From: a virus
Virus record (IMG/VR): IMGVR_UViG_3300045988_138000
Length of the DNA stretch: 64,000 bases
Direction: 5' to 3' (one strand)
In this document: piece after piece, positions 5,053-63,994 of the stretch
How positions within the stretch are numbered: position 1 is the first letter of the stretch
Layout: every line of letters starts with the position of its first letter
Notes under the pieces: model-generated
What the model saw: only the letters and a program-made list of their open reading frames with translations
What the model was told of the DNA's origin: nothing
Databases searched by the model: none
Made by a program: the position numbers and the translations under genes

Positions 5053-5798
5053 TCCAGTTTATGAAAATTAGCAACGTGTCCTTTTGCATCCCTACTATGA
5101 CCAAAAAGAAACACTTGGCTGCTGCCAGGTTCTATATCGTCCAGCCGCGCAAGACGCATAAACTCACTGTAAGTTTTTCCTTTAAGATACGAAGTCTGCG
5201 GACCTAACGGCAGAAGAATGTCCGACAACTGCTTGTATCGGGTACGCTGCGGATGGGCGTTAAACTCAAAGCCTCGGTCGTAATCCTTCAATATGCTTAC
5301 CATAAATATACGCTCTCGGTTTTGTGGAATGTAATCTTTAGCGTTGATAACCTTATAGTAGTTGTTATAACCCATTGTTTCAAGCCTTGCAAGCCATTGC
5401 TCGAAATCGGGACGAAACTTTGCACTTAATAAATCGCGCACATTCTCCATAAGCAACCATGTAGGATGCTTTGCAGATATAGCTTTCTCACACTCCCATA
5501 ATAAAGAGCTACTTGTGCCCGTACCTTCAGTAAGACCGCGCTTGTCGCCTATACGACTAATGTCGGTACAAGGAAACGAGTAGGTAAAGAGATCGAAATC
5601 AGGCACTCTATCCCAATTAACTTTTGATATGTTACCATAATTGTGCACATAGCCATGCAGAGCCCGATAAGCGGTCAACGCTTCGGGCTTTATCTCGCTT
5701 ATGCCTACGGACTTATAGGGTATGCGAGCCATTTCCATTGCCAATGCTTGCGAGCCGTAGCCTGCAAAAGCTTCAAACATTCGGATTGTCATCATCAT
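4938..5798 (-). CDS. DNA (cytosine-5)-methyltransferase, N-terminal fragment
   Basis: Motif I FEAFAGYGS, motif IV FPCTDIS, motif VI LMENV, motif VIII QNRERIF. The frame is lost at the C8/G8 tract at 5014-5021. Confidence 0.85.
   Translation of the reverse strand: MMMTIRMFEAFAGYGSQALAMEMARIPYKSVGISEIKPEALTAYRALHGYVHNYGNISKVNWDRVPDFDLFTYSFPCTDISRIGDKRGLTEGTGTSSSLLWECEKAISAKHPTWLLMENVRDLLSAKFRPDFEQWLARLETMGYNNYYKVINAKDYIPQNRERIFMVSILKDYDRGFEFNAHPQRTRYKQLSDILLPLGPQTSYLKGKTYSEFMRLARLDDIEPGSSQVFLFGHSRDAKGHVANFHKLDCAHCCTTGSVGGGTLECTFIIQSTNRYASLRLLSKCA
5014..5021. other. homopolymer tract (C8 on plus, G8 on the coding strand) at the methyltransferase frame break
   Basis: gttcccccccc aact at 5011-5025. 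The two MTase fragments overlap here in different frames. 4747..5798 is 1052 nt, so one extra G would give a single 351-codon ORF. Confidence 0.9.
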
Positions 5799-13302: not shown

Positions 13303-14055
13303 TTACTCAATACCGTATGCCTCTGGCAACTTCTTGATAATATCACCGCCATAAGCATCTTGCGTTAATTTGACGAACTCACGAACAGAAGTCTTACCAT
13401 CAAGGGATAACCCTTTGTTTGACATAAAAGCTTCTCTGCCCATACGACAGGAACCGGTAAGCACGTGGTGATAGACGAACAAATCCATATTGTCATACTT
13501 AACATCATACTCAGGAAACTGCTTCATGAAGGCTTCGATTCGTTCCTCTTCGGTGCTGTCGTCGTACAGCTTTTCCTGAAGAGACATGAAAGCATCTTTT
13601 AGAGTGTCGCCATGAGCAAATTGATTGTTCTCTTTGACAATATAGCAAGGTTCAAATTGTAGGTCGTTTTTAACGATGAAGCCTTTCGCTATATTATTAC
13701 GGATTGACTTAAATATAGTAGGAATATTGTCTACCATATAGATTTCTTTACCATTAATTTCTTTTATGCCATCACCATAGCCTTTGCCAGAGCCTGTGCA
13801 ATATAAGGATCCAGAGCCACAATCATTGCCATCGTTATAGGTGCCATAGGTGCTATAGTTAGAGCCATGACCTAAGCCAGAGTCAGAGCCATCACCCATG
13901 CCATCACCCATGCCATCACCAGAGCCATCGCCATTTCCAGAGCAACCACCCCCAGAGCCTTTGCCATAGAAATCGCAAGAGCCAGCGCCAGCACCATTGC
14001 CATTGCCATTACTAATAGCCGAAAACGCCCTTATCTTGTCTTCTAACATTTCCAT
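13303..14055 (-). CDS. glycine-rich repeat protein with a globular C-terminal domain
   Basis: The N-terminal 100 aa reads NGNGNGAGAGS..GKGSGGGCSGNGDGSGDGMGDGMGDGSDSG..., followed by an ordinary-composition domain. Confidence 0.6.
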   Translation of the reverse strand: MEMLEDKIRAFSAISNGNGNGAGAGSCDFYGKGSGGGCSGNGDGSGDGMGDGMGDGSDSGLGHGSNYSTYGTYNDGNDCGSGSLYCTGSGKGYGDGIKEINGKEIYMVDNIPTIFKSIRNNIAKGFIVKNDLQFEPCYIVKENNQFAHGDTLKDAFMSLQEKLYDDSTEEERIEAFMKQFPEYDVKYDNMDLFVYHHVLTGSCRMGREAFMSNKGLSLDGKTSVREFVKLTQDAYGGDIIKKLPEAYGIE

Positions 14056-29036: not shown

Positions 29037-30182
29037 TCATTTATCCGATAAAGAATAATTCCAATTAACTATCTTGCCAAATACTTTGACGGAGCATTTT
29101 TTTACGTGCTTAATAACATCGTCGGTTAGACAACTCTCTACCCTTTCGCATTGCTCCCGACTTGCCTTTAAAAGTATAGTCTTTCCATCGTAGGACATAA
29201 ACCCAACCTTTCGCAGTTCGTCACCAGCCTCTCCATCAAGCATAGATAAGAGCTGCTGCCACTCTCTCTCCCCTGGCTGCTCATCAGCAAAGAGCAACGT
29301 CTGTTCCTTGGGCGCTGTCGCCTTCATCATCTCCTCGAAAGTATCGTAAACATTAAACTCGATAAAAGCAGGATTACCTACCTTGCGCTTACCATTGTAG
29401 ACAGGTTCATACGACACGCAAACGTCGAGTTGACCCATCTGCTTCAGTCGGTTTATATCGGCAATGCTATTGTCGAGTACATTCTTCTTGAATTGCGAAA
29501 ACTTAGGATAGGTCTCTTTCACAATTTCCGTACCACTAAATTCAAGCATACCTAAATACTTCTTGATTTTACTGACCGTAAGCCGGATTTTGCGCTCTTT
29601 CCAGTTATTGCCGCTTGCATCGCGCAGAATGTAATATATCATTGGCATACGCGCCACCTCACCAATCAAAGCAATGTTATCAGGATGTGACACATATCCC
29701 TCGGTCATATTGAAGGCATAGTCCAATACATAAAGGTGTTTGTCGGGATCTATCACTTGCGGGTTAAGCCCAAAAACAACTCCCGTGTTCTTAATAGACG
29801 TTTCGCCACTCAGAAAAACATTATACATGTGCATACCCCATGTACCATCCTCATTCTTCTTCGGACCTTCCACCTTTACGTCCAACACTTCTTTCATCGC
29901 TTGCTTCACGGCAAAGAAATTGTTTTCTGGTACACCTAACTCAGCATAGGAGATGTATATCTGGGTGACACCCGAATTTTTCACTGCCTCGGAGAACAGG
30001 GATTTGGGTACCTTGCGCGACTTAGCCAAATCTGAACCAAAGAACTCTTTTATGAAGGGCTGCAACTGCTCACTCACCTTCACCAGCACCGCCTGCTGCA
30101 ACAGCGACAGGTTCTTGCTCAACCTGGTGAAGGCAAAAGGCGTATTTATCCACTTTTGCGGTAATCGTTTCTCGTTTTCCAT
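29037..30182 (-). CDS. plasmid-type replication initiator (Rep-like)
   Basis: 381 aa, directly downstream of an iteron and AT-rich field. The N-terminal FAFTRLSKNLSLLQQAVLVKVSEQL resembles the Rep_3-type pattern. The call rests mainly on context. Confidence 0.5.
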   Translation of the reverse strand: MENEKRLPQKWINTPFAFTRLSKNLSLLQQAVLVKVSEQLQPFIKEFFGSDLAKSRKVPKSLFSEAVKNSGVTQIYISYAELGVPENNFFAVKQAMKEVLDVKVEGPKKNEDGTWGMHMYNVFLSGETSIKNTGVVFGLNPQVIDPDKHLYVLDYAFNMTEGYVSHPDNIALIGEVARMPMIYYILRDASGNNWKERKIRLTVSKIKKYLGMLEFSGTEIVKETYPKFSQFKKNVLDNSIADINRLKQMGQLDVCVSYEPVYNGKRKVGNPAFIEFNVYDTFEEMMKATAPKEQTLLFADEQPGEREWQQLLSMLDGEAGDELRKVGFMSYDGKTILLKASREQCERVESCLTDDVIKHVKKCSVKVFGKIVNWNYSLSDK

Positions 30183-30198
30183 ATCGTTTCCTTTCCTT

Positions 30199-30570
30199 TG
30201 AGGTAAAAAGTTACTAAATCTTTTTACCTATTTACTATTTCGTTTTACCTATTTACTAACTATTTTTCTTTACCTTGTACTTAAATCACTGAAAATCAGT
30301 AATTTCTCATAAACTCCTATAATATAGATAAGAAGAAACATATTTTTTCTTTATATATATATTTTAATAGTAAGGTAAAAATATTTAGTATATAGGTAAA
30401 AAGATTTAGTAAGATTTTACCTTATCGTCACCTTTCGAGTAAAGCAATTTAGTACTTCACATTTAAGGTAAAAAGATTTAGTAAAATTTTACCTTATCGT
30501 CACCTTATGGGTAAAGCGATTTTTCTTTCTTATGTTTGAGGTAAAAAGATTTAGTAAGATTTTACCTTAA
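30199..30570. repeat. iteron field / candidate oriV
   Basis: aggtaaaaagatttagtaaRattttaccttatcgtcacctt occurs at 30394, 30466 and 30539 (spacing 72-73 bp). A degenerate copy lies at 30372 and an inverted copy within the palindrome 30201-30229. TTTTACCTATTTACTA occurs twice. An AT-rich block lies at 30300-30370. Confidence 0.75.
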
Positions 30571-30923
30571 CCTTGAGAATATCTGTCGATAAACTCTATC
30601 ACTCCCTGGGCAGCCAGTTCCTGAAGCGTCTTACCCGTACATTCCTTCAGACGAGCCAAGCGGAAATAATAATCCATGGGGATTGTTACCTTTACACTTT
30701 TCTCTGTCTTTAAAGGTTGCATGGATAATGACTGTTGCGCTTCGGCTGTTGGCTGTTGGCTGCCAGTGGAAGAGGTGGTGGTAGCACTACCGCTCGCCGT
30801 ACCCGTTGAAGGCATAAAAAATGCCGACTGTTGCGAGGTCTGTCCTTGCTCGTATATTCCTTCTATTTTATCCATTGCGTCTGATTTATTCAAACCGAAT
30901 TTTTTTACATTTGGTCTTGCCAT
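30567..30923 (-). CDS. ParG-like ribbon-helix-helix partition/centromere-binding protein (candidate)
   Basis: 118 aa immediately downstream of parA. A disordered S/T/Q-rich N-terminal half is followed by KVTIPMDYYFRLARLKECTGKTLQELAAQGVIEFI, which is RHH-like. Confidence 0.45.
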   Translation of the reverse strand: MARPNVKKFGLNKSDAMDKIEGIYEQGQTSQQSAFFMPSTGTASGSATTTSSTGSQQPTAEAQQSLSMQPLKTEKSVKVTIPMDYYFRLARLKECTGKTLQELAAQGVIEFIDRYSQG

Positions 30924-30980
30924 AATATTCTATTGATTAAAAGTCCTCAATTATTTGTATGAAATTATAACATGAGCTGC

Positions 30981-31853
30981 CTACTGAGGCATACTCTCTA
31001 AGATTTCTTTCGTAAATCGCTCATAGTCCTGCCCTACCCTGCAGTAAGGTGCATAAGAAAAAATGTCGGTACCCATCGCCTGAGCTTCCACCATCTTGGT
31101 ATCTCTGCGGGTATATGAATCGAACACGTAGTCATCGAACTTCTCGCTCAGATATTCCTTGAACTGACGCGTCGCCTTGGTCTGGTCATTACTCATCACC
31201 TCCAACAGTCCACGAATATCCAGGTCCTCATTCAGGTCTTCCCTGGTCTCTATCACGGCATTGGTGATTTCTGCAATACCCTTTGTGGCCAACACTTCCA
31301 ACTGGACGGGGATAACGACACTCGATGCCGCCGCCAGCGCATTATAGGTAAGCAGCGACATGGCTGGAGGGCAGTCTATCAATACGTAGTCGAAGGCATC
31401 CAGGATGCTGCTTACGCCCTCGTCTGCGAGTTCTGTGCCCTGCATCTCCTGTAATGGCTTCAATAGGATTTTACGAAGGGCCTTGCGAGGCACCGCCATC
31501 TGGTTAAGAAAGGGCTCGATGCTGACCATCTTCTGTGAGGCCGGAGCGAGGTAGATACCTTCCTGCATCTTATATACGGGCAGGGAGGTCTGGTTGATAA
31601 GAGCATCGTAGGTGGTAGGCTTATTGTCGCTGTTCACCTGGTCCCAACCGAAAAGGAAAGACAGACTGACCTGTGGGTCGAGGTCTACGAGTAAGATACG
31701 TGGCTTTCGCTCCTTTCCGTCTGCACCCTTTCCGAAGTACCCTTTACCGAAGCGACGCAGCCCTGTTGCTAAACTCTGTACCGTTGTGGTCTTGCCTACT
31801 CCACCTTTATGATTCACGAAGGCGAGTATTTCTTTCAATCTTGTTTCTGCCAT
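30981..31853 (-). CDS. parA: ParA-family partition ATPase
   Basis: Deviant Walker A, VNHKGGVGKTTT. Also LLVDLDPQ and IDCPP. Confidence 0.85.
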   Translation of the reverse strand: MAETRLKEILAFVNHKGGVGKTTTVQSLATGLRRFGKGYFGKGADGKERKPRILLVDLDPQVSLSFLFGWDQVNSDNKPTTYDALINQTSLPVYKMQEGIYLAPASQKMVSIEPFLNQMAVPRKALRKILLKPLQEMQGTELADEGVSSILDAFDYVLIDCPPAMSLLTYNALAAASSVVIPVQLEVLATKGIAEITNAVIETREDLNEDLDIRGLLEVMSNDQTKATRQFKEYLSEKFDDYVFDSYTRRDTKMVEAQAMGTDIFSYAPYCRVGQDYERFTKEILESMPQ

Positions 31854-31904
31854 AATCTTTTTATTTAATGAATAATCTATTCGATAATGCTATAATGTGT
31901 AACC

Positions 31905-32450
31905 AAATACACCGAAGTACATAAGTACATTAGTACTAAAGTACGAACCTACGTATCTACGTACCTACATACGTACCTATGATTTTTCATACGTGCAAAG
32001 ATACAACTAAAAAACATAACTACCAACTATTTTCCGTTTTATATTTTAAATATTAAGTATTTTTATAGGTTCGCATCTATGAACGAATGAAAATATGAAC
32101 GTAGATACCTATCAGCATACGAACCCACGTACCTACGTGCGAATAAACGTATGAACCTACGTACCTACGTGCATACGAAAGTGCATAAGTACGTAGGTGC
32201 AAAGATACGAAAGTACGAATGCGTGGAAGTTTGGACGTATCGAAGTGGAAAGGAGTGGACGTTGAAAGGTGCAATCGTATAAAGTACTAAAGTACTAAAG
32301 TGCAATAATATTAAAGTATAATGGTGTATTTGCATAAAAGTACAAAAGTACAATAGTTTTAAAGTGTAATTGTGTAAACGTATAAAAGTACTAAAGTACT
32401 AAAATACAATAACACAAAAGTACAATGGTGCAAAAGTATAAAAGCGCAAT
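31905..32450. repeat. GTAC-rich short direct repeats (centromere/operator candidate)
   Basis: About 17 GTAC cores sit within AAGTAC(T/A)A and ACCTACGTA units, for example aaagtactaaagtactaaagtgc at 32281 and acgtacctacgtgc twice. The region lies directly upstream of parA. Confidence 0.7.
31996..32027 (-). promoter_or_regulatory. Bacteroidota-type promoter for the par operon (TTG-N20-TATCTTTG)
   Basis: On the plus strand, caaagata lies at 31996-32003 and caac at 32024-32027. The GTGCAAAGATAC box recurs at 32197-32208. Confidence 0.45.
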
Positions 32451-32668: not shown

Positions 32669-33655
32669 TTATATGTTAATATCATTACCTTCCTGTTGCC
32701 ATTCATCTTTGATGGAAAGTGAGAGGGAGGCGCGGTGATTGTAAAATGAACCTGTAATAGTCGTTATCTTGTTGCGCTCCAGGCGGACGTTAGGTACCGT
32801 GATAGTTGCATAGGGCGTGGGGGTGTTCTTGCGGTTCATCGTGAAGGTGATGTCGGCTGAATAGCCGTCTTTCGGGCAAAGCACGAAGTAGGCAATGGTG
32901 GTGCCTACGGTACCGGCAAGAGAGGAAACATCAGAGCTGCGCTGATTTTTCACATGGTCCATAACGTCCAAGGTCTGCCAGTTGATAGTGCGGTATTCGT
33001 TGAATGTGGCATCGATGGTGCTGCAATCGTCCGGGAACGCATCGGTGCTGTTGATCACCATCTTCGCCACCAATCGTTCCAGGGAGATGACGGCCACCTC
33101 GTTCTGACCCACGGCAACCGTTATGTCCTTCACTGCGCCGAAGCTGTCTGAGGTTTTGTCGCTCGTCCAGACGACGGGCTCCGTGGTGGATGATACAGGC
33201 GTCAGCAGGTTGTCAGTAAGTGCAAAGGGAGTGCTGGTTGCGTCGAGGAGGGTAGGGGCGGTGCTGCGAGTTGCTATCACCTTGAGGGTATGCTCGCCAT
33301 AGTCGAGCGTCAGGTCAGGCTCGGCGAAGTCGGCTGCCGTGTTCGTCTGATGGAGCACTTGGAGCAACTTGCCTGTCGCCTTGTCGTAGTCCAGGATATA
33401 CAGGTCTGTGAGCTCTTTGCCGTTGGCAACAAGGGAGGCTCGCGTAGTTGCATCGAACATTGGAGCTACGGCTGCCTTAGCAAAGGATGAGGGCTGTGAG
33501 GCACTAACGAAACGCAACTTGACGTGAGCCTTACCAGCAGGCTGTTCCTGTTGCTGCTCGTCCTGAAGGTGAAAACTCTCGCATGATGTCATCGTGGGCA
33601 TCAGCAGAGCTGCAGCCATGGCCATGGTGCAACAAACAAATAGTTTCTTTTTCAT
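32669..33655 (-). CDS. surface lipoprotein (possibly fimbrillin-like)
   Basis: Signal plus lipobox, MKKKLFVCCTMAMAAALLMPTMTSC. The mature part is rich in beta strands. The fimbrillin comparison is a weak impression only. Confidence 0.6.
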   Translation of the reverse strand: MKKKLFVCCTMAMAAALLMPTMTSCESFHLQDEQQQEQPAGKAHVKLRFVSASQPSSFAKAAVAPMFDATTRASLVANGKELTDLYILDYDKATGKLLQVLHQTNTAADFAEPDLTLDYGEHTLKVIATRSTAPTLLDATSTPFALTDNLLTPVSSTTEPVVWTSDKTSDSFGAVKDITVAVGQNEVAVISLERLVAKMVINSTDAFPDDCSTIDATFNEYRTINWQTLDVMDHVKNQRSSDVSSLAGTVGTTIAYFVLCPKDGYSADITFTMNRKNTPTPYATITVPNVRLERNKITTITGSFYNHRASLSLSIKDEWQQEGNDINI

Positions 33656-42156: not shown

Positions 42157-42168
42157 AATTCTAATATT

Positions 42169-42472: not shown

Positions 42473-43156
42473 TTATTTCCGATTTTCCGCTAATATTTTT
42501 CTCACGCTATAATAAGGCGTATTAAACGGATATTTCACTTCGTTGATGACGTACACCACCATCGGCTCATTCATGCGCAATGTATCTCGACACTCCACAC
42601 GGCCATACATGCCATGTGCCATGAGATTCAGGGCGCACATCTTGCAAGCAATAGGATCGCTGTCCTGTGCCACATACTCGAAGCGGCGGCCAGCCGAATG
42701 GTCCAGTTTGCTCTTATCCATGTAGTGAGCCAGGAGCAAACGTCCGCTACCTGCTGCGCAGTCGTTCACCTTGCCATGATTCCCCGCTCCCAAGGCACTA
42801 ATCCGTGCCATAAGGTCCGAAATACTCTGAGGCGTGAAGAACTGCCCCGTTTTCGATGCCTTGCCACGGCTCAAATACATTTCTTCATACAGGATACCGA
42901 ACACGTCCAGCCACTCGCCACGATTCATCGCTGTTGCCACATCGCCCAGCCACTGGAGGGCGAGAGCGGAAAACTCAGGATTCTGCTCTGTGCAACTCAA
43001 AATGTGCTGGCTATATTCAACGGTGCCAGCCTTGAAAGCGTCAATGCTGAAGAACTCTATAAGATAGTCGCAAAAGTCGCTCAGAGCCAGTTCCTGCGGT
43101 CTGCTATGCTTGTTAGCCTGTTCGGTCAATACGTCGATATACTTCTTTTTATCCAT
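42473..43156 (-). CDS. HsdM/N6-adenine-methylase-like protein lacking the catalytic NPPF/Y motif
   Basis: TGQFFTPQSISDLMA (motif X-like), VNDCAAGSGRLLLA (motif I) and YVAQDSDPIACKMCALNLMAHG...CRDTL. The ORF ends 30 aa later with no NPP[FY]. Confidence 0.6.
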   Translation of the reverse strand: MDKKKYIDVLTEQANKHSRPQELALSDFCDYLIEFFSIDAFKAGTVEYSQHILSCTEQNPEFSALALQWLGDVATAMNRGEWLDVFGILYEEMYLSRGKASKTGQFFTPQSISDLMARISALGAGNHGKVNDCAAGSGRLLLAHYMDKSKLDHSAGRRFEYVAQDSDPIACKMCALNLMAHGMYGRVECRDTLRMNEPMVVYVINEVKYPFNTPYYSVRKILAENRK

Positions 43157-43179
43157 GATTTTCTCAAAATTTTATGTGT

Positions 43180-43216
43180 TCTATAATAGGGCTGCCCTAC
43201 TGCCAGGTGCAGCCCC
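43180..43216 (-). promoter_or_regulatory. hairpin + TATTATAGA intergenic element (copy B)
   Basis: On the minus strand: GGGCTGC-acctggcagtagg-GCAGCCC, then TATTATAGA, then 23 nt to the ATG at 43156. Confidence 0.5.
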
Positions 43217-43228
43217 GTGAATGATGAT

Positions 43229-44035
43229 TTAATAACCCTTCCAAAAGTAAGAGTGATGGCTATACTGGCTTAATGCCTTCTCCTTGGCAAACTCGCGGAT
43301 CTCGTAGTCGTAGCCTTCCATCTCCTTCATAATCGCCTCCGCTTTTCGTGCCAGGCGCAGATAGGCTGCATACTTCTTCTTGGATGCCTTCAGATTATCA
43401 ATAACCGCCAAACGCTCTTTTTTATACTGTTCTATAACAGCAACCGCCTTTTCGGCCTCCAGACGGTCGCCAGTGTTCCACTGCCATTCGTTCGGATTCA
43501 CTTCTTTCTTCTTACCGGTGTAACGGTTGATGCCGTGGCTCCAGTCTGCGGATATTGAAACGTTTGGGCGATATTCCACAATACGGTAATAATCCCAGCA
43601 ATTCAGCTCGAAGCGGTTTTCACCAAACGAACTATAAAAGCCCGTCGCCTCCTTCACGGCATCGTGGAAGCGTTTATTCAGGACCTTTTCATCAAACTTT
43701 CGGCATACCTGAATAAGTCCGTCCAGGGCCTTGATTTCAAGTTTTCTGCGCTCTATCAATGCGTCCGCGTGCTTGCAATACTCCTTCACCTCGTTGACCT
43801 TTTTGTCGGCTTCATGTTTTTTTGCAGCCGCCATAAAGTCCGCCTCCGTACCGATACTGTAGGACTTCTCTTTCCATCCATTCTCGCGACTAAACTGGTG
43901 ATATAAATCTATATACCTCTGCGCATCATCCTTTGTGGCAAAGTGGCACACGCCGTCCAATGTTTCAGACTTCCACAACCACACATCGCCATCGTTGCAA
44001 ATAAGATTTTTTGCTTCAACAAATATCTGGAACAT
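43229..44035 (-). CDS. hypothetical protein
   Basis: 268-aa ORF. Confidence 0.6.
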   Translation of the reverse strand: MFQIFVEAKNLICNDGDVWLWKSETLDGVCHFATKDDAQRYIDLYHQFSRENGWKEKSYSIGTEADFMAAAKKHEADKKVNEVKEYCKHADALIERRKLEIKALDGLIQVCRKFDEKVLNKRFHDAVKEATGFYSSFGENRFELNCWDYYRIVEYRPNVSISADWSHGINRYTGKKKEVNPNEWQWNTGDRLEAEKAVAVIEQYKKERLAVIDNLKASKKKYAAYLRLARKAEAIMKEMEGYDYEIREFAKEKALSQYSHHSYFWKGY

Positions 44036-44058
44036 AATATTCTCAATTTTTTATGTAT

Positions 44059-44094
44059 TCTATAATAGGGCTGCCCTGCTGCCAGGTGCAGCCC
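44059..44094 (-). promoter_or_regulatory. hairpin + TATTATAGA intergenic element (copy C, about 90 percent identical to B)
   Basis: Same architecture as B, 23 nt from the ATG at 44035. Confidence 0.5.
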
Positions 44095-45572: not shown

Positions 45573-45848
45573 TTAGGCGCAGCGCATGAAATCGTCCAGA
45601 TAATAACGCGTTCCGTATATGGTAAAATACGGACGGCATTCAGCTTCAGGATCACGCGGGCAAGTGTATTTGATGCGCTGCCATCGTTGTGCCGTGTGCT
45701 CGTTTCTGCTGGTGCAGTCGCGCCACAATACCCCTTCTCCTCCATCGTCTATAACGATGCAATAACCGCCATAATTGTTAGTCTGAAGAAAAGCGCAGCC
45801 GAACTTTAAAAGCTCGTCGAACTCCTGTTTTTTAGTGATACGTGCCAT
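45573..45848 (-). CDS. hypothetical protein
   Basis: 91-aa ORF. Confidence 0.55.
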   Translation of the reverse strand: MARITKKQEFDELLKFGCAFLQTNNYGGYCIVIDDGGEGVLWRDCTSRNEHTAQRWQRIKYTCPRDPEAECRPYFTIYGTRYYLDDFMRCA

Positions 45849-45913
45849 AATCTATAAGCCGAATTGCTGTTGCCGCCAGATCTAAATTGTTATTTGTTTC
45901 TTATTTTCGTTTG

Positions 45914-45945
45914 CAAAATTACTATATACATTTGAAATAGCCAAA
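45914..45945 (-). promoter_or_regulatory. Bacteroidota-type promoter (TTTG-N20-TAATTTTG) inside a duplicated about 97-nt module
   Basis: On the plus strand, caaaatta lies at 45914-45921 and caaa at 45942-45945. The module at 45890-45986 is about 80 percent identical to 48246-48342. Confidence 0.6.
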
Positions 45946-46160
45946 TATTTAAATTAAAAAGTTATCAAATACATTTATTTTTAACGTTTATACACAATTA
46001 TATGTATTTGTAATAGGTATTATTTACATTTGTTTACAATTCCCTGATCTCTGTGATATGCTATAAAGTCTATAACGAGCTGCCAGGAGTGGGGGCACCG
46101 CTGCAAAATCTCTAAAATCTGTGATATACTATAATATGTATAACGTAACAAAGTGGGCAC

Positions 46161-46588
46161 CATTGAGGCGCACCAGGAACGGCGCAACGGTGCAACGGGC
46201 AACACTCCACACCTGGCAGCATCGAGGCACCAGGACGGCGCAAAATGGTGCAACGGACAACACTCCACGCCTGGCAGCATCGAGGCACACCAGGAAGGCG
46301 CAAATGGCACGGCGGCAATACTCCACACCTGGCAGCATTGAGGCGCCAGGAACGGCGCAAAAGGGCACGGCGGCAATACGTCCACACCTGGCAGCATCGA
46401 GGCGCACCAGGAACGGCGCAAAGGGTGCACGGGTAACACTCCACACCTGGCAGCATTGAGGCGCACCAGGAAGGCGCAAATGGCACGGCGGCAATACTCC
46501 ACACCTGGCAGCATTGAGGCGCACCAGGAAGGCGCAAATGGCACGGCGGCAATACTCCACACCTGGCAGCATTGAGGCGCACCAGGAA
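46161..46588. repeat. GC-rich tandem repeat array 1 (58-59-nt unit, about 7.5 copies)
   Basis: The unit is ctccacacctggcagcattgaggcgcaccaggaaggcgcaaatggcacggcggcaata. Copies start at 46205, 46263, 46321, 46380, 46439, 46497 and 46555. There are 15 CCWGG sites. Confidence 0.9.
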
Positions 46589-46590
46589 CG

Positions 46591-46622
46591 AAAAAAAACG
46601 GGCTGCAAACAATTTGCAGCCC
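46591..46622 (-). terminator. intrinsic terminator of gene 46631..46981
   Basis: On the minus strand: gggctgcaaa-ttg-tttgcagccc (a 10-bp stem) followed by T8. Confidence 0.8.
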
Positions 46623-46630
46623 GCGAACGG

Positions 46631-46981
46631 TTAAAACATCCGATATAATTCATTATACATATTATATGTATTATCTTGATTCAAGAACTCAAGGAAGGCC
46701 GCGGCGCGTTTTTTAGTTAAAACTTTGTAGTTATGCAAAGTTAAAAACGCTTTCTTTGCGGCCGCCTTAATCTTCTCGAGTACGTCAATAATAACGTTTT
46801 TTATTGCGCTTTGGTACAGGTAACTTTCCCACGTTCTGTTATAATAACGTATCTTTGTGCGGGCAACTTTGAACGTGTTATTTTTATATAATGTAACTTC
46901 GTGTCCCCAACTGGTGCGAGTTCTCCAGGACTCGCACACAAATGTAAATTTTACGCCGTTTATTTCTTTGTTATAAATCAT
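46631..46981 (-). CDS. hypothetical protein
   Basis: 116-aa ORF followed by a strong terminator. Confidence 0.6.
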   Translation of the reverse strand: MIYNKEINGVKFTFVCESWRTRTSWGHEVTLYKNNTFKVARTKIRYYNRTWESYLYQSAIKNVIIDVLEKIKAAAKKAFLTLHNYKVLTKKRAAAFLEFLNQDNTYNMYNELYRMF

Positions 46982-47349: not shown

Positions 47350-47381
47350 AATCTATATATTTTTTTAAGTTGTTAGATGAA

Positions 47382-47400
47382 GGACCGGCGGCGCCGGTCC
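47382..47400. terminator. GC palindrome hairpin (copy 1)
   Basis: ggaccggcggcgccggtcc, just after the stop of 47411..47788. Confidence 0.55.
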
Positions 47401-47788: not shown

Positions 47789-47820
47789 AATTATAATTAT
47801 TAAAAAATTGTTTGATGTAA

Positions 47821-47839
47821 GGACCGGCGCCGCCGGTCC
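47821..47839. terminator. GC palindrome hairpin (copy 2)
   Basis: ggaccggcgccgccggtcc, just after the stop of 47850..48224. Confidence 0.55.
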
Positions 47840-47849
47840 TGGTTCTTGT

Positions 47850-48224
47850 TTAAAGTTTTATTTCTTTCATGTTCGCCAGATCAAAAATAGCTATCTGGTT
47901 GTTATAACGTCCAAGATCTTTTGCGGTTTGCAAATCGTCTACGATTACGGTTGCGTCAAAATAAAATTGATTATTGTCTCCATTATACCAGCCGCCAAAG
48001 GCGTTTATTTCTGGATGCTCAGAAACGTATTTTACGACGTTTGCCAGACCATCCAGGCCAAAAGAGTCTTGCGTATCTGCAACGGCTACAGCGTAACCGC
48101 TTGTCACCGGCTGCAAGTTGGCAGCGTCCACGGTAAAGCCTTCTTTGTTAGCCATTGCGATCGCTGCAAGTGCGATCAATACTTTAGTTTGTTGTTTATT
48201 CATTGTTTTAATGCGGAATTTCAT
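47850..48224 (-). CDS. hypothetical protein with a signal-peptide-like N-terminus
   Basis: 124 aa, containing KVLIALAAIAMA. Confidence 0.55.
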   Translation of the reverse strand: MKFRIKTMNKQQTKVLIALAAIAMANKEGFTVDAANLQPVTSGYAVAVADTQDSFGLDGLANVVKYVSEHPEINAFGGWYNGDNNQFYFDATVIVDDLQTAKDLGRYNNQIAIFDLANMKEIKL

Positions 48225-48270
48225 ACTGTTGCCCCCAGCTTTATATTATTTGTTTCTTGTTTTACAGTTG

Positions 48271-48302
48271 CAAAAGTACTACATATAATTGTAATAGCCA
48301 AA
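48271..48302 (-). promoter_or_regulatory. Bacteroidota-type promoter (TTTG-N20-TACTTTTG), second copy of the duplicated module
   Basis: On the plus strand, caaaagta lies at 48271-48278 and caaa at 48299-48302. Confidence 0.6.
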
Positions 48303-48430
48303 TTTTTCGATTAAAAAGTTATCAAATGTATTTATTTTTAACCTCCTTAAACAAATATATATGATTTGTTTACACTTATTTGCAAATAGATATAATTGCA
48401 TACCTTATTATATATAGGGTCGTTGCGGTT

Positions 48431-48878
48431 CTGGTGGCTGGTGGCTCCCTGGTGGCCGCCTCCCTGGTTCCAGTGGTGGAGGTGCCTCCCTGGTGGCTGG
48501 TGCCTCCCTGGTGGCTGCCTTCCTGGTGGTGCTGGTGGCCGCCTCCCTGGTTCCAGTGGTGGAGGTGCCTCCCTTGGTGGCTGGTGGCTCCCTGGTGGCC
48601 GCCTTCCTGGTGGTGTTGGTGGTGCCTCCCTGGTTCCAGTGGTGGAGGTGCCTCCCTGGTGGCTGCCTTCCTGGTGGTGCTGGTGGTGCCTCCCTGGTTC
48701 CAGTGGTGGAGGTGCCTCCCTTGGTGGCTGGTGTCCTCGTGGCTGGTGGCTGCCTTCCTGGTGGTGTTGGTGGTGCCTCCCTGGTTCCAGTGGTGGAGGT
48801 GCCTCCCTTGGTGGCTGGTGTCCTCGTGGCTGGTGGCTGCCTTCCTGGTGGTGCTGGTGGTGCCTCCCTGGTTCCTCG
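48431..48878. repeat. GC-rich composite tandem repeat array 2
   Basis: The core ctggttccagtggtggaggtgcctccc starts at 48464, 48547, 48630, 48684 and 48781, with a partial copy at 48868. Variable ggtggctg/cttcctggtggtg blocks lie in between. There are 16 CCTGG sites, all in the same orientation. Confidence 0.9.
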
Positions 48879-49281: not shown

Positions 49282-49575
49282 ATGAGAACGAAAATTGACA
49301 TTCGTCGCGCCATAAAAGAGCGCGGTTACACCATTACGTCTTTCTGTCAGAAGTTCGACCTAAAGACGCAGAACATCATTCAGAATTACATCAAAGGAAA
49401 CCCTACAATAAAACGTTTGGAGGACCTTTGCGAGAAACTGGATTGCGACATCACTGATTTGTTCTATCCAATAGGCGATTCGAGCGATGCACAGCCTACT
49501 ATCAACACCACCGCCTTCTGTCCTCATTGTGGTGCAAAGGTTCGTGTCGGTGTGATGCTCCTGCCCGAAGAATAA
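49282..49575 (+). CDS. HTH (XRE-like) regulator with a C-terminal zinc-ribbon-like CxxC
   Basis: IRRAIKERGYTITSFCQKFDLKTQNIIQNYIKGNPTIKRLEDLCEKLDCDITDLF, followed by FCPHCGAKV. Confidence 0.7.
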   Translation: MRTKIDIRRAIKERGYTITSFCQKFDLKTQNIIQNYIKGNPTIKRLEDLCEKLDCDITDLFYPIGDSSDAQPTINTTAFCPHCGAKVRVGVMLLPEE

Positions 49576-49610
49576 AAAATCCCACGGCAAGCCGTGTGCC
49601 TACCGTGGGA
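49574..49610 (-). terminator. intrinsic terminator (minus sense; also closes the plus-strand HTH gene)
   Basis: tcccacgg-N15-ccgtggga, followed on the minus strand by T6. Confidence 0.7.
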
Positions 49611-49641
49611 AATGTTAAGGCCTTTGTGTGCAAGCCAGCCT

Positions 49642-50079
49642 TTAAGACTCCAGCTCGCCGCCAGGCTTCTGACCGCCGCCTTCAGTTGTGGAGCCGCCTG
49701 GCTTCACGCCACCCGTGAGGTCGTTGCCGGCAAGGATGACCTTGAGGTCGTCGGTGACGAGGGAGCGCATGAAGCTGTAGGGGTTGCCGATCTTGTGCTG
49801 CGCCTTGTAGGCCTTCATCACGGCGAGGTAAGCCTCCGTGCCCTTCGCCGACGTTGCCGACGGGCGGTTCTGCTTCCACCAAGAGGAGGCAAATTACGAT
49901 TTCTTCGTAAACGAAGATTTCACCGTCTGCTGTTTCTCACTGTTCGGCTGCACGCATCCGTGATAGCCAGCCGAATACATCTTACCCGTGCGCTTGTTGA
50001 CACCAATGTAAGTGGTGTCCTTCTTGCACAGTTTGCCACTGATTGAACTAATCAAATGGCTGGGTGTAATTTTTGCCAT
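49642..50079 (-). CDS. hypothetical protein, 145 codons with one in-frame TAA (codon 62)
   Basis: Own translation: MAKITPSHLISSISGKL...QQTVKSSFTKKS*FASSWWKQNRPSATSAKGTEAYLAVMKAYKAQHKIGNPYSFMRSLVTDDLKVILAGNDLTGG...ELES*. The terminator follows 30 nt after the second stop. Confidence 0.45.
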
Positions 50080-50135: not shown

Positions 50136-50180
50136 GAGCAAGTACTACGAAAGTACTATGAAAGTACTACGACGTTGCTC
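50136..50180. repeat. three tandem AAGTACTAYGA units flanked by the inverted gagcaa/ttgctc
   Basis: gagcaagtactacgaaagtactatgaaagtactacgacgttgctc has the same AAGTACTA core as the repeats upstream of parA. Confidence 0.8.
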
Positions 50181-50257: not shown

Positions 50258-50842
50258 ATGAAGAAAATTTTCAGTTTTTTGCTCATGTTAGCCATGATGC
50301 TTGCCATGGGCGAGAGTGTAGCGAGTTGTAGCAGTAGCAGTGACGATGAAGGTGGGGAGAATAAACCTCCAAAAGAAGAGTATGTCGCAAAAGAAAGCAA
50401 ATTTTGCGATGCCTTGAGAAAATTCAAGGTATCAGGGTTTGACTACTATCAATACCAATATGTCAGTAAATTCTCGCTGCATAGCGAGGCTCGCAGTGGA
50501 AGAGATGCCACCGACAGATGGGAGATTGGAATGTATATAGCAAACGACCCAGGTTTGGATAAGTGGGACGGCACATACCAGTTAGACCAACTTTGGGGTA
50601 CGCTCTACGGCTTTGAAAATGGGTACGAGGTGACAAAAGCATATTTAGGTACAGCAGATACTCTCCCAGTGAAAGGAGCATGGATAAAATTCACCTACTT
50701 GCACAAAAACGACAAATACGGCAATAAAATATACACCATAGAGTTGCATATCGACGAAATGAAGGAGAAAAACGGAGACTACGCACGCGACATCAACATC
50801 ACATACACGGGTTCGATTAGCGGCGGCATGATAGAATATTAA
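50258..50842 (+). CDS. lipoprotein (opposite-strand cargo gene)
   Basis: Signal plus lipobox, MKKIFSFLLMLAMMLAMGESVASC, followed by an SSSSDDEGG linker. Confidence 0.7.
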   Translation: MKKIFSFLLMLAMMLAMGESVASCSSSSDDEGGENKPPKEEYVAKESKFCDALRKFKVSGFDYYQYQYVSKFSLHSEARSGRDATDRWEIGMYIANDPGLDKWDGTYQLDQLWGTLYGFENGYEVTKAYLGTADTLPVKGAWIKFTYLHKNDKYGNKIYTIELHIDEMKEKNGDYARDINITYTGSISGGMIEY

Positions 50843-59952: not shown

Positions 59953-60201
59953 CTAAGACATTTTTTTCTCTACGATAGCTGTCACATCAGACACAAGTTG
60001 TAAGTCTTTTGCCTCTTCGGGCGAAATCTTGATATGGAACATGGTTTCGGTCTGAAGAACGAGATCGAGAAAGTCGATAGACTCAAGAGCGAGATCATCA
60101 CGCAGGTTAGAGCTGTCGGTCACTTCTGCTGTCGATGCCCAAGGTGTGCGCAGGCCTTCAACTATATTGAACACCCGCTGGCGAATATCTTCTTTGTTCA
60201 T
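59953..60201 (-). CDS. acyl carrier protein
   Basis: 82 aa. LRDDLALESIDFLDLVLQTETMF matches the ACP DLGLDSLD..EL..E.E.F pattern, with the Ser attachment site. Confidence 0.8.
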   Translation of the reverse strand: MNKEDIRQRVFNIVEGLRTPWASTAEVTDSSNLRDDLALESIDFLDLVLQTETMFHIKISPEEAKDLQLVSDVTAIVEKKMS

Positions 60202-61412
60202 AATGATTGGAATTTAGAAATGATGAATGACGAGTTGGTGCCTCCGAAGCCAAAGGCATTACAAAGAATATGGTGTGATAAGTACTCGCGTGACTGCATG
60301 ACGAGATTGAGCTTAGGAAAAGCATTCTCGGCTGTGGTAGCCGCACCGAAGATAGTGTCTGTGTTGAGCATCATGGCGGCTTGAACGGCCTGCGATACAC
60401 CAGCCATCCAGCACTCGTGACCCGTCATACCCTTGGTGGCTACGATATAAGGGCTCTCGGGGAACACCTTTCCGATGGCTTCTGCCTCTGCAGCATCGCC
60501 CTGCTCCGTACCTGTGGCATGGGCGAGGAGTACATCTATCATTCCGGCATCGAGTCCAGCCGACTCTATGGCCTTAATCATTGCCACCTCTTCCTGATAA
60601 GCATCCGGGGTACAGATGCTGGTGCCATTAGTGGAAAAGCCGTAGCCTGAAAGTTCTGCCACGGGCGAGACTTCATAATCCTCAAAACGCAAGCTGTCGG
60701 AAGGCTCAAGAATGACACAGGCTGCACCACCCGAAGGAGCAAGACCATTGCGGGCTTTGCCGAAAGGCTGCACCTTGTCGGGCGAGAAAACGCCCATGGC
60801 ATCAAACGACAGCATGGAGAAGGGACCAGTCTCCTGTGCTCCAACGACAATCACCATGTCGGTTTGGCGCGCATCAAGAAGCATCTTGGCAAGACCGATG
60901 GCATGACCTCCTCCGGCACAAGCCCCGCTGACGGTAAGCGAGAGTCCTTTCAGTCCGTAGATAGAGGCGAGGCTCATGCTGACGGTGGAATTGAGTGTGC
61001 GGAACACTGCACCTGCCCCTAAACGTCGGGTGTCGCGCTGTGTAATGGCAGTGGTCATTGCCTGATAGTTGTCTCCCGCCGTAGAGTCGTTGCTGACGAT
61101 GACCGATACATTGTGAGACTGCAAGAACTCGGGAAGAATATTGGCTTCCACCAGAGCCTCGTTGACGGCAGATAAGGAATATAGGGTCGGTTCGGAAAGA
61201 CATTGCCGTTGACCCCTGGTGAGTTTTGAAAACTTCCAAGGGTTCGGATCATTTATCTTTCCGCACAGGTCGGACTGATAACCTTTCTCGCTGCGCGCGG
61301 GGTCGTGGTGCAGACCGCACTCTCCATACGCCAGCTTCTGTGCGACGGAAAAGGTATCGTTGCCAAGACTGGAAACAATACCTGTGCCTGTGATTAATAT
61401 TTTTCTATCCAT
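60198..61412 (-). CDS. beta-ketoacyl-ACP synthase (KAS I/II, FabF/FabB-like)
   Basis: Trimmed to the ATG at 61412 (MDRKILITGTGIVS...). The catalytic Cys lies in VSGACAGGGHAIG. The His motifs are LLAHATGT and KGMTGHECWMAG. The C-terminus contains NAFGFGGTNSS. Confidence 0.85.
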   Translation of the reverse strand: MDRKILITGTGIVSSLGNDTFSVAQKLAYGECGLHHDPARSEKGYQSDLCGKINDPNPWKFSKLTRGQRQCLSEPTLYSLSAVNEALVEANILPEFLQSHNVSVIVSNDSTAGDNYQAMTTAITQRDTRRLGAGAVFRTLNSTVSMSLASIYGLKGLSLTVSGACAGGGHAIGLAKMLLDARQTDMVIVVGAQETGPFSMLSFDAMGVFSPDKVQPFGKARNGLAPSGGAACVILEPSDSLRFEDYEVSPVAELSGYGFSTNGTSICTPDAYQEEVAMIKAIESAGLDAGMIDVLLAHATGTEQGDAAEAEAIGKVFPESPYIVATKGMTGHECWMAGVSQAVQAAMMLNTDTIFGAATTAENAFPKLNLVMQSREYLSHHILCNAFGFGGTNSSFIISKFQSL

Positions 61413-61441
61413 GATTATGTTTGTTTGATTAAAGAATACTC

Positions 61442-63994
61442 TTACAAGGCATAGACGGTCAGTTCTACCTCTCCAATGCCTTCCTTGGCCGTGATAGTTG
61501 TATTCACCTTGTCGATAAGACATTTCACACCTCCGATGTTCCACCACGTCTTCCAGTGGTTAGGTATGTCGGCTATCTGTGCGACAGAAGCCGAACAGCG
61601 GATGATGTACTTCTTGCGGTTAAGCAGGAAATAGGCGTAGGGCAGAATGAAGGTATCGAAAAGACCGCGTGAGCGTATCTTGGTTATCACATTGCCGTTA
61701 GTGTCCACCTCGTCGGGGGCGCAGAGTGAAACATCCTTATATTCAGGCTTACTGAGCCATGACGGCTCTTTGAAAGCACGTATCTTGAGCGAGAAACGTT
61801 CACCTTTGCCTCTGCCTTCCTGAATACCATTATAGTCGAAGACATTGCCCATCATGTCAATAGAGTCGCAAGCAAGAGCATATTCGCCTGCTGCCGTGCG
61901 CCACTTGGAAGTACCGAAGTGGTCGTAGTTATAGTCATAGGGCTCTGTAGTTGCATTCGTACCGCCGCCTCGCATCATGGCCAAGGCAAAGCCCCATCGT
62001 GAATCGTCTTGAAGAGGCGAGTTGCCGTCTTCGGTGTTTGACGGGTCGTAGCTCTCGACGAGTTTCAACGACTGCTGCATATAGAAGTCGCAGAAAGGCG
62101 AGGAGATGGTCTGGTTGATGATTTGCTCGACAAACTCATGCTCCATGTCCTCATCGACATAGGCGCAGAGGATAGGCTGTCCTTCCTTGATAACGACACC
62201 ATAGGTTGTTGTCTTTGAATCGTCATAGTACTTTGCCGTATGAGAGCCGTAAGCAGCCTCTATCTCCTTGAAATAGTTGACATCATTGAACGGCACGGGG
62301 GTGAAGTCGATGGTGATGTCGTGGATGAAGTCTTCATTCTCCTCGCTGCAATCGCCATACTCCACACCCTTGTACTGGCCTACCTCGAAAAGCACAGGCT
62401 TGAGGTCGGCTGTAGTAGTGGCGTCGCCATTCACCTTCACGCGATAGGCATTGCCCGTCTTCGGGTCGATGTAGCATCTTTTATCGCCAGAACTTAAATT
62501 ATGAAAGAAGTCAACGTAATCTCGATCGTAAACCGTTTCGTTGTCTCCACTTCCCGGTTCGGGATAGTCGATATAGTCGTAGTCGGTAGCATAGCCCATA
62601 TTTTTATTCTTGCGGCTGTCCTTGACGTTCTGCTGCTGATCCTTGGCATCGCTCTCTTCGGAGTATCGCATACGTACACCCGTTATCTTCTCGCTGACGG
62701 GAATGATAGAATGAACGTCTGCGCGAAACGTGCGTGCTGGCTGTCCACTCTCGCGAAGCACGTCACGGATGAGGTAGGCCGTGACTTTCTTTTGCTCATA
62801 GTCGTAGGAAAACTTGATGCCGAAGGCGCTCTCCAAGGATGAGATAATCGTGCTGACACTCTCATCGGGGAAGTTGTCGCTGTTGGCCACCATATAGAGC
62901 ACGTTGGCCTGCACGTTGAACTTAGAGATTTGCGCCTCGATGCTGATACCTGTCACCTTTCCGCCCTCTTTTGTCGTCTCTCCCACCTGTATGTGTTCGG
63001 AAGTTCCTTCGTTAGTGGTAAGGGTGAGCTCGTTGACCGTCTTGTCCTCTGCCTTTACGATGTTGATTTTTCCACCACAACCGCGCGACTCCAACCAGGA
63101 GTTGATATGATCTTGCTTCTTGAAATATCCTTCCTTAATCTCGCCTGCCTTCTTTTTCTTGGCGATGACTTCGGGGTCTTTATCCTCATAGTATGTTCCG
63201 TGATGTGGATGCTCTTTGGTGTCGTAGGCGCAAACGGTGGTGAAGAAACAGAGGTGCTTCATATCCTCTATCTGCATCAGTGCCGACTTGTCGAAGGTGA
63301 CACCCAGGTGAGCAAACAGGCAGTCGAGAAAATAGAGTACATAGAAACAGATGCCCGACTGCGGACGGCGTGCGTCCAACACCCAATAGGGATAAAGATC
63401 CTCGTTGGTCCACTTGCAGTCCTTCGTGCTGATAACGTCGCTCGATGTGGTGCCATCGTCAGCAAGTCCGTGGTGCTTGTAGCAGATACGGGCGTTGCAA
63501 TAAGCTGCCGGACGGCCTGCGCCATCTGTCTCGCCATAGGCTGCCGACGTGTTGATATAGTCGCCATTCTTGGCGATGGCGGGCTCGTTGACTGTATTTC
63601 CGTTGGGGTAGGCTCGTGACGACTTTCTCTTAGCGTCGGCCTTCATGTGTAAAGGATAAAGGATATTGGTGGTGTACTCCTGGCACGATGCAGGATAGGA
63701 GAAGCCAAGAGCCTGCGGTTCGAGCACTTTACTTACACTTACGTGCTCGGCATGAATGGTTCGGGTGACAGTCTCATCATCCTTATGCTTTCCTCCCTCC
63801 ACAAACACACTGACATTTACAACAGGGTCGCTCTCGATGTCTACCCTTACGTTGCCTATCTTCTCGCCGATGATCAGTTCATCCTTGATGGGGATGTCAC
63901 GACAGTTGAGCGAACCGATGAGGTCGCTGAAACTCTGTCTGCCTGCATTAATACTCATAGAGAGCGAGTCTTTTATCTCTTCAGCATCCTGCAT
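61442..63994 (-). CDS. large virion/baseplate-type hypothetical protein
   Basis: 850-aa ORF with an ATG at 63994. It lies directly upstream of the KAS gene on the same strand. Confidence 0.6.
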   Translation of the reverse strand: MQDAEEIKDSLSMSINAGRQSFSDLIGSLNCRDIPIKDELIIGEKIGNVRVDIESDPVVNVSVFVEGGKHKDDETVTRTIHAEHVSVSKVLEPQALGFSYPASCQEYTTNILYPLHMKADAKRKSSRAYPNGNTVNEPAIAKNGDYINTSAAYGETDGAGRPAAYCNARICYKHHGLADDGTTSSDVISTKDCKWTNEDLYPYWVLDARRPQSGICFYVLYFLDCLFAHLGVTFDKSALMQIEDMKHLCFFTTVCAYDTKEHPHHGTYYEDKDPEVIAKKKKAGEIKEGYFKKQDHINSWLESRGCGGKINIVKAEDKTVNELTLTTNEGTSEHIQVGETTKEGGKVTGISIEAQISKFNVQANVLYMVANSDNFPDESVSTIISSLESAFGIKFSYDYEQKKVTAYLIRDVLRESGQPARTFRADVHSIIPVSEKITGVRMRYSEESDAKDQQQNVKDSRKNKNMGYATDYDYIDYPEPGSGDNETVYDRDYVDFFHNLSSGDKRCYIDPKTGNAYRVKVNGDATTTADLKPVLFEVGQYKGVEYGDCSEENEDFIHDITIDFTPVPFNDVNYFKEIEAAYGSHTAKYYDDSKTTTYGVVIKEGQPILCAYVDEDMEHEFVEQIINQTISSPFCDFYMQQSLKLVESYDPSNTEDGNSPLQDDSRWGFALAMMRGGGTNATTEPYDYNYDHFGTSKWRTAAGEYALACDSIDMMGNVFDYNGIQEGRGKGERFSLKIRAFKEPSWLSKPEYKDVSLCAPDEVDTNGNVITKIRSRGLFDTFILPYAYFLLNRKKYIIRCSASVAQIADIPNHWKTWWNIGGVKCLIDKVNTTITAKEGIGEVELTVYAL

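Follow-up and report, generated by a model that had tools for sequence, protein, structure and literature searches.

Repeats that maintain episomes include sopC of the F plasmid (12 units of 43 bp), the incA iterons of P1 and the FR repeats of Epstein-Barr virus, and promoter-proximal contingency repeats are represented by the TAAA tract upstream of nadA in Neisseria and the 7-bp repeats of hmw in Haemophilus influenzae. A GC-rich tandem array (array 1) in the viral record IMGVR_UViG_3300045988_138000, of which a stretch of 64,000 nucleotides (the window) was analyzed, is compared here with these systems, with the variable-number tandem repeat (VNTR) loci of bacteria and phages, and with Chi recombination hotspots. 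Array 1 and a second array of the same window (array 2) are two hypervariable, non-coding, GC-rich minisatellites that fill the spacers before both copies of an early promoter module.

Like bacterial and phage VNTR loci, the arrays are non-coding, consist of head-to-tail units (in array 1 with a period of 58 nt by Tandem Repeats Finder, TRF) that are homogenized within an array, with identical units next to the terminator, vary in copy number between near-identical genomes and break short-read assemblies. Unlike these loci, two arrays of mirror-image composition occupy fixed slots before a duplicated promoter throughout a phage family, one strand has almost no A, and the slot persists through the replacement of entire families of units. 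With sopC, incA and the Epstein-Barr virus FR the arrays have in common an extrachromosomal replicon, a tandem unit length of some tens of bp and a short inverted repeat in each unit, but no cognate ParB or Rep gene lies beside array 1, separate iterons and a centromere-like field are found at 30-32.5 kb, and neither the sequence nor the copy number of the unit is conserved. The likeness to Chi hotspots and to the GT-rich sequences preferred by RecA lies in a GT-rich strand with a TGGTG core, in polarity, in the position at mosaic junctions and in the E. coli octamer GCTGGTGG, which array 2 contains seven times on one strand; however, Chi sites are dispersed single octamers over-represented genome-wide, whereas here the motif is confined to the arrays and the units vary between close relatives. 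The nadA and hmw repeats are also of variable number upstream of a promoter and could tune expression, but their units measure 1-7 nt against 10-87 nt here, and the arrays lie 130-210 nt upstream of the -33 boxes of the two module copies with conserved elements in between.

Structure and turnover of the arrays

TRF identified 7.4 copies of a 58-nt period with 85% matches in array 1, in agreement with the original prediction of about 7.5 copies of a 58-59-nt unit, and the predicted register (unit starts at 46205, 46263, 46321, 46380, 46439, 46497, and 46555) is correct. The last copies had been described as nearly identical: the units at 46439 and 46497 are the same and the unit at 46555 matches them until the array ends after ~35 nt, while the earlier copies diverge mainly between GGAGT.. 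and TTTGCGCC, also as described. The array is GC-richer than its flanks (0.63 compared with 0.29 on the left and 0.36 on the right), and its gene strand (the minus strand, which carries nearly all genes of the window) contains 9% A. The high density of CCWGG was reproduced with 15 sites (7 CCTGG and 8 CCAGG), compared with 0.64 expected from the composition of the window and 1.6 from that of the array itself; it can be read as a by-product of the imperfect palindrome CCTGG...CCAGG in the unit of this lineage. The claim that the array is free of stop codons in all six frames holds for the three minus-strand frames, whereas the plus-strand frames contain 2, 1, and 3 stops (TGA in the "cattgagg" units). 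Spurious open reading frames (ORFs) had been expected, and ORFs of 166-180 amino acids do run across array 1 on the minus strand. Frames stay open in the arrays because their strands are poor in A or in T, and any stop codon needs an A on its own strand and a T on the opposite one. Most array periods are not divisible by three, the reading frame shifts with each successive unit and entire units are exchanged for others, as befits a non-coding sequence.

The second GC-rich array beside the second module copy is present as predicted. Array 2 contains 16 CCTGG, all on the plus strand, and 18 CTGGTGG on the same single strand as its seven exact copies of GCTGGTGG, whereas the 7 CTGGTG of array 1 are on the opposite strand. 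Across the relatives described below, slot-1 arrays contain 8-15% A and slot-2 arrays 0-10% T on the gene strand over their full spans, and the arrays of the two slots are therefore compositional mirror images of each other. Arrays 1 and 2 show inverted similarity in the window (z = 4.9) and in the closest relative (z = 3.1); concerted evolution of the two arrays was rejected because this similarity is not significant in 11 other genomes.

A total of ~25 related IMG/VR contigs were collected by searches with p116 and p91, which flank array 1, and with unit patterns. Tandem arrays occupy the same two slots in these phage contigs, which shows that array 1 is no one-off accident but part of a real feature of the whole family. 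Conservation extends neither to its sequence nor to its copy number, nor even to its presence. In the relatives, slot 1 is bounded by the same terminator and the same 40-nt elements as in the window. Units of 58-60 nt, which come in several subtypes, fill slot 1 in the window (7.4 copies) and in contigs 155282 (6.2), 124938 (4.4), 137429 (4.4), 138700 (4.2), 097331 (~1.5), and 161048 (~1.3). Other relatives carry 10/20-nt units in this slot, namely CTTGTACGTG/CTTGGATGCT in up to 47 copies, or the 10-nt units GTGGCTAYYC (5-30 copies) and CTGTATCKYG (3-36 copies). Overall, complete slot-1 arrays range from ~1.3 units of 58 nt to 47 units of 10 nt, and the slot is missing in the relatives L068 and L082. 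The unit lengths found in slot 2 of the relatives are 15, 20-23, 39, 48, 50, 62, 69, and 83-87 nt.

These changes are found between contigs that are otherwise very similar. Copy numbers of 7.4, 6.2, and ~1.3 occur in contigs with 89-99% identical flanks, and contigs 108496 and 111964 differ by 21 versus ~3 copies with a left flank that is 100% and a right flank that is 93% identical. The closest relative of the window has 96-99% identical flanks, a unit consensus that is 83% identical and an array 2 built from a different unit. Between the 58-nt lineages the consensus identity is 73-83%, and unit change is thus rapid over short times but limited over long ones. The original prediction had taken two different arrays in the same architectural slot as an argument for a function, one that unrelated or absent arrays in close relatives would weaken; this is in part what is seen, with arrays in close relatives that are unrelated in sequence or nearly absent (~1.3 copies between flanking genes that are ~95% identical).

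Assembly breaks within the arrays cut off many contigs at both ends (both in array 1 for 121434, and one in array 2 for 155282), as is usual for assemblers at repeats. The flanks of slot 1 are mosaic: in L012, L014, and L083 (3 out of 13 fully assembled slots), the 250 nt to the left and the 300 nt on the other side point to different nearest relatives. Gene content between the two arrays varies as well (L068, L073, and L082), and the arrays and GC palindromes mark the junctions. The p116 gene is absent from all three of these relatives; L073 keeps the terminator and the array in the absence of p125, p110, and p116, which indicates that p116 is dispensable.

An array unit in multiple copies was found in IMG/VR by the unit-pattern search only within this phage family, and the same pattern gave only single chance matches in GTDB, in GC-rich genomes. 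The core motifs of the array are not above chance elsewhere in the 64-kb window, and literature searches found no description of such arrays. Neither a CRISPR array nor an RNA anti-CRISPR repeat mimic fits, as unit directly follows unit and the differences in the variable part are all variants of a single theme; in Rfam, including the models of CRISPR direct repeats, no match to the array was found at E<=1 or at the gathering score.

Explanations for the arrays

The explanation that is favored, with moderate confidence, is that array 1 is a minisatellite driven by slippage and recombination at a mosaic junction, in an insertion-tolerant spacer where early-gene modules are exchanged, and that its CCWGG sites and ORFs are by-products. 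The arrays would form and turn over by replication slippage and by unequal or out-of-register homologous recombination, and new units would be born from pieces of old ones, which is proposed as the reason why every version keeps one A-poor strand. They would lie at the break-points where related phages exchanged early-gene modules, and their most likely role would be that of a sequence-tolerant, recombination-prone linker or spacer between terminator and promoters, not that of a specific recognition site. If this is right, the arrays are strain markers for a widespread uncultured gut phage-plasmid, the breaks of assemblies at the same two places are explained, and annotators are warned against the 166-190-amino-acid ORFs called across the arrays.

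Several observations weigh against this explanation. Arrays of at least 100 nt are present in 10 out of 14 fully assembled slots, in addition to at least 11 contigs that break inside an array; phage genomes normally lose repeats, and the long arrays therefore hint at maintenance by selection. The 58-nt family conserves the blocks TCCTGGTGCC, TGGAGTATT, and TTTGCGCC next to a variable stretch of 13-15 nt, and these blocks are invariant across lineages whose promoter modules cannot be aligned. Strand asymmetry and mirror orientation occur in all contigs but L022, in which array 1 is inverted directly after the terminator, and TGGTG is located on the A-poor strand in 27 out of 32 arrays. Array and promoter module also seem to have been duplicated together. 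Finally, a GC-rich island occupies the equivalent slot of distant relatives with a 63% identical p91, which suggests that a GC-rich element in this slot is old. On the other hand, the consensus sequences of the 10-nt units (GCTnTAYnGT) suggest kinship among these units and perhaps with the GGTATGGAGT part of the 58-nt unit; arrays would therefore have arisen independently only a few times, and the shared composition may be inherited and not selected.

The island of the distant relatives L085, L087, and L088 (3300045988_168399, _165610, and _163316) is located at ~2000-2430 in the divergent region between the helix-turn-helix (HTH) gene and the early promoter. It is barely repetitive, reaches 75% GC and contains GGTGGCGAG(A/G)T mini-repeats.

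Because long arrays persist, unit blocks are conserved and polarity is nearly constant, two alternatives were retained. The first, which is doubtful, is that the arrays are a multi-site platform for a phage or host DNA-binding protein with the short core TCCTGGTGCC, or more generally GGTG/CTGGTG, and act as a tunable enhancer, silencer or insulator of the adjacent early promoters with a strength set by the copy number. The position of the arrays upstream of both module copies, the unit blocks conserved across lineages and the frequency of TGGTG would fit such a platform, as would the 10-nt period of many arrays (one helical turn) and the minimal state in contig 161048, which keeps three TCCTGGTGC motifs. 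However, the copy number falls to ~1, some 10-nt arrays lack the core, the orientation can flip (L022) and the motif is found nowhere else in the 64 kb. No candidate binder was found either: Pfam, PHROG, and NCBIfam gave no DNA-binding candidate among p116, p91, p124, and p125, p116 is dispensable, and p91 remains 88-99% identical in close relatives while the arrays change.

The regulator encoded next to array 2, an HTH protein with a zinc ribbon, covaries with the promoter module and not with the array. Its N-terminal HTH domain falls into at least five types among the relatives. The arrays were rejected as operators of this regulator because array type does not follow HTH type: an identical H1 domain is found alongside five different array types, the L013-type array is combined with H4 as well as with H1 (L013/L015 versus L016), and the GTGGCTATC array with H1 as well as with H5 (L017/L018 versus L078). 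When the promoter modules were clustered on the 110 nt that end at the -7 box, M1 and M2 within one genome always fell into the same cluster, and the H1, H4, and H5 genomes each had their own cluster; three H2/H3 genomes (L022, L068, and L082) carry the H1 cluster, and L073 has no HTH type assignment. The type of the module, not that of the array, follows the HTH type, and regulator-specific determinants therefore lie in the module. Judged by sequence, the duplicated module and the HTH type look like an immunity-type switch with two co-regulated early promoters. This association between module and HTH type (H1, H4, and H5) is a by-product of the analysis that stands on firmer ground.

The second alternative starts from polarity. 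It is improbable that the mirror-image, strand-asymmetric GT-rich arrays act as a dedicated polar signal on both sides of an early-gene cassette that can be exchanged. Such a signal would be Chi-like for the AddAB of the host, or would load or block a phage protein with a recombination or anti-nuclease function. The Chi-like version, in which polar elements control a nuclease or promote recombination, is itself quite improbable. The GT-rich, A-free strands point away from the cassette, and an AddAB-type helicase-nuclease that comes from either side would meet the signal ahead of the early cassette, stop degrading and start recombination. The mirror orientation in nearly all relatives, the TGGTG core on the GT-rich strand, the one-stranded GCTGGTGG and CTGGTGG of array 2 with the opposed CTGGTG of array 1, and the coincidence of the arrays with mosaic break-points all speak for such a signal. 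Bacteroides has AddAB, and its Chi sequence is not known (PMC2887965). Against a Chi-like role, the octamer GCTGGTGG is the Chi of E. coli and not that of the presumed host, and TGGTG, CTGGTG, and GCTGGTGG occur at Markov expectation and without skew in the window outside the arrays. Moreover, the units differ between closely related phages, array 1 is inverted in L022, and no Chi system that uses arrays is known to us. If the polar signal were real, this family of Prevotellaceae phage-plasmids would have recombination hotspots of its own, by which early modules are protected and reshuffled among relatives. A polar or protein-binding role would also give a first handle on Chi-like signals or early-gene control in Prevotellaceae phages, on which, to our knowledge, almost nothing experimental exists.

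It is very unlikely that the array is transcribed into a repeat RNA that works as a sponge or decoy or pairs with the CACCUGGCAG hairpin loops of early mRNA. The 10-mer CACCTGGCAG occurs six times in array 1 and its reverse complement in the hairpins at 43200 and 44079, as had been predicted, and the full stretch in common is 12 nt. Each unit could form an imperfect hairpin (CCTGGTGCC...GGCAxCAGG, 86% paired), and the gene strand folds with a z-score of -3.0, the plus strand with one of -1.5, with the terminator included. In addition, TATAAT-like boxes are located just left of both arrays on the plus strand; however, such sigma-70-type boxes are not of the Bacteroidota promoter type, and their count does not exceed that of shuffled sequences. 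The unit lacks the covariation of a structured non-coding RNA, with compensatory changes in 0 out of 9 pairs, equally good scores for shuffled controls and a weak RNAalifold consensus (-6.8 kcal/mol with a covariation term of -0.65). Rfam has no match for it at E<=1, and the 10-nt arrays cannot form the hairpin at all. The suspected functional link between array and hairpin loops did not hold up, as there is no covariation with array type: the loop in GGGCTGC-ACCTGGCAGCAGG-GCAGCCC is unchanged in the lineages with 10-nt arrays, which lack the complementary motif. A kissing interaction between array and loops was rejected because the loops stay constant while the arrays change.

A role as lytic replication origin, pac or terminus site, or partition centromere is highly improbable. 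The direct repeats adjoin an AT-rich region, many 86-96-kb contigs begin and end inside the array, and a tandem repeat on an episome recalls sopC of the F plasmid. The contig ends, however, occur at both arrays, as expected from assembly at repeats. The original prediction of a possible origin is not supported in view of the maintenance module at 29-32.5 kb, in which the only initiator found, Rep3-like, has its own iterons (30211-30569) and the ParA and ribbon-helix-helix genes have their own repeat field (31.9-32.45 kb), which has no similarity to the array. The array units, by contrast, are not conserved and vary freely in sequence and copy number (~1-3 copies in some relatives and no slot 1 in L068 and L082), and cumulative GC skew does not turn at the arrays. 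No terminase was identified among the ORFs of the window that were screened.

A decoy or sink for CCWGG-recognizing enzymes (EcoRII-type restriction or Dcm-type methylase), for which the sites in arrays 1 and 2 and the C5 cytosine methylase encoded by the phage would speak, is far-fetched, since the enrichment is not conserved in homologous arrays (0-1 CCWGG in the 10/20-nt arrays of relatives, none in the 10-nt arrays and none in array 2 of other lineages with GGTGTCCTCGGTGG types, with only one CCTGG per unit conserved in the 58-nt family) and the rest of the window is neither depleted nor enriched (87 sites seen versus ~94 expected).

Neighboring elements and promoter modules

The features of the window are collected in table 1. 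On the gene strand, array 1 is preceded by the p116 gene and its terminator and followed by two 40-nt elements, module M1 and the p91 gene. The strong minus-strand terminator that had been predicted beside the array is confirmed, with a stem of 12 bp and a T run, and the junction of hairpin and array recurs in relatives. The ~40-nt elements are conserved in nearly all relatives irrespective of array type.

Table 1. Positions of the arrays, neighboring features and maintenance genes in the window.
Feature	Position	Strand	Remarks
Rep3/RepB-like initiator (Rep3_C)	29037-30182
Iterons	30211-30569		~six, 19-21 nt, TTACTAAATCTTTTTACCT
ParA-like ATPase	30981-31853
Small ribbon-helix-helix (ParG/CopG-like) ORF	within maintenance module 29037-32450
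Centromere-like field	31.9-32.45 kb		GTACTTT and GTAGGTACGTA repeats
Intergenic hairpin, first copy	43188-43215	-	GGGCTGC-ACCTGGCAGTAGG-GCAGCCC; 10 nt (CACCTGGCAG) common with array unit
Intergenic hairpin, second copy	44067-44094	-	12 nt (CACCTGGCAGCA) common with array unit
p91 gene	45573-45848	-	first gene downstream of M1
Promoter module M1	45849-46040	-	-33 TTTG 45942-45945, 20-nt spacer, -7 box TAATTTTG 45914-45921; ~60 nt before p91 ATG
Two ~40-nt elements	46038-46145	acting strand ambiguous	TTATAG.ATATCACAGA (gene strand); repeat family between array 1 and M1
Array 1	46156-46590	none	7.4 tandem copies of a 58-59-nt unit; non-coding (TRF, composition, frames, unit alignment)
Intrinsic terminator of p116 operon	46598-46624	-	12-bp stem, 3-nt loop, T8; array 1 starts directly after T run
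p116 gene	46631-46981	-	116 amino acids, no family match; last gene of cassette between arrays
p124 gene	47850-48224	-	first gene downstream of M2
Promoter module M2 (M1 paralogue)	48225-48385	-	-7 box TACTTTTG 48271-48278; -33 TTTG 48299-48302
Array 2	48431-48875	none	compound repeats of 64/83/87 nt; 68% GC; 2% A on plus strand
HTH (Cro/C1-type) regulator with zinc ribbon	49282-49575	+	divergent from M2; Pfam and PHROG matches

The AT-rich promoter module of ~175 nt is duplicated, as the original prediction had stated: the stretches 45904-46003 and 48261-48360 share 81% identity, and a longer alignment of ~175 nt still reaches 77%. Its reading as a promoter is also supported, since both copies carry the canonical Bacteroidota arrangement of a -33 TTTG, 20 nt and a -7 TAnnTTTG on the gene strand, and all relatives retain the TAnnTTTGCA box. 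M2 is predicted to drive p124, p125, p110, and p116. Array 2 is located ~130 nt upstream of M2 in the divergent region that it shares with the HTH/zinc-ribbon gene. Since the early promoters downstream of both arrays point in the direction away from the arrays, these would lie outside the inferred transcription units.

A perfect GC palindrome, GGACCGGCG(G/C)CGCCGGTCC, is present in two copies (47381-47400 and 47820-47840) that bracket the p125 gene. These copies behave like cassette boundaries, as relatives gain or lose genes exactly there.

A strong bidirectional terminator (49580-49610) follows a minus-strand ORF (49620-50079) with one in-frame TAA; the ORF may be a pseudogene or a pair of short genes, or the TAA may stem from a sequencing error. 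A Rho-utilization site on the strand of array 2 that is C-rich and U-free was considered, a reading that this strong terminator makes less necessary.

The intergenic hairpins belong to a recurring unit on the gene strand (43154-43215 and 44033-44094), the motif of which is also found at 42159, 42424, 42489, 44520, and 45521. The hairpin GGGCTGC-ACCTGGCAG(C/T)AGG-GCAGCCC is followed, ~20 nt before the next start codon, by CCCTATTATAGA; the unit is a candidate for a phage-specific promoter or an RNA-processing signal.

Genome context and further features

The window is part of the genome of a tailed phage, with genes for tail proteins, a minor head-like protein, a sliding clamp and an NAD-dependent ligase. 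The plasmid-type maintenance module inside this genome suggests that the phage lives as a phage-plasmid. Its Rep protein and the RepB proteins of Segatella and Prevotella plasmids share 27% identity, the related IMG/VR contigs measure 86-101 kb and assemble as circles, and short contigs encoding p91 are found in ENA metagenome assemblies, one of which is labelled gut metagenome. The genome probably belongs to an uncultured gut phage-plasmid with a host in the Prevotellaceae. Among deposited phages no close relative was found: a megablast search of INPHARED with the region at 44-50 kb gave no match, protein searches with the tail protein, p124, and Rep among known phages gave distant matches or none. 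The p91 protein had no match in GTDB species genomes or PLSDB, and no tRNAs were found. A 93-kb plasmid of Segatella copri with a related Rep was dismissed as an unrelated metabolic plasmid.

Several accessory genes were observed: a C5 cytosine methylase (4938-5798), a half-size hsdM-like N6 methylase in the early region (42473-43156), a beta-ketoacyl synthase beside the tail genes (60198-61547) and a protein similar to the Mfa1 fimbrial subunit (32669-33655). The sequence AAGTACTACGA is repeated three times at 50140-50172, upstream of a lipoprotein gene on the plus strand (50258-50842), and shares its AAGTAC core with the repeat field on the parA side. Tandem repeats of 12/24 nt (GCCATCACCCAT and variants) at 13857-13943 are located inside an ORF (13303-14055) and are probably coding repeats.

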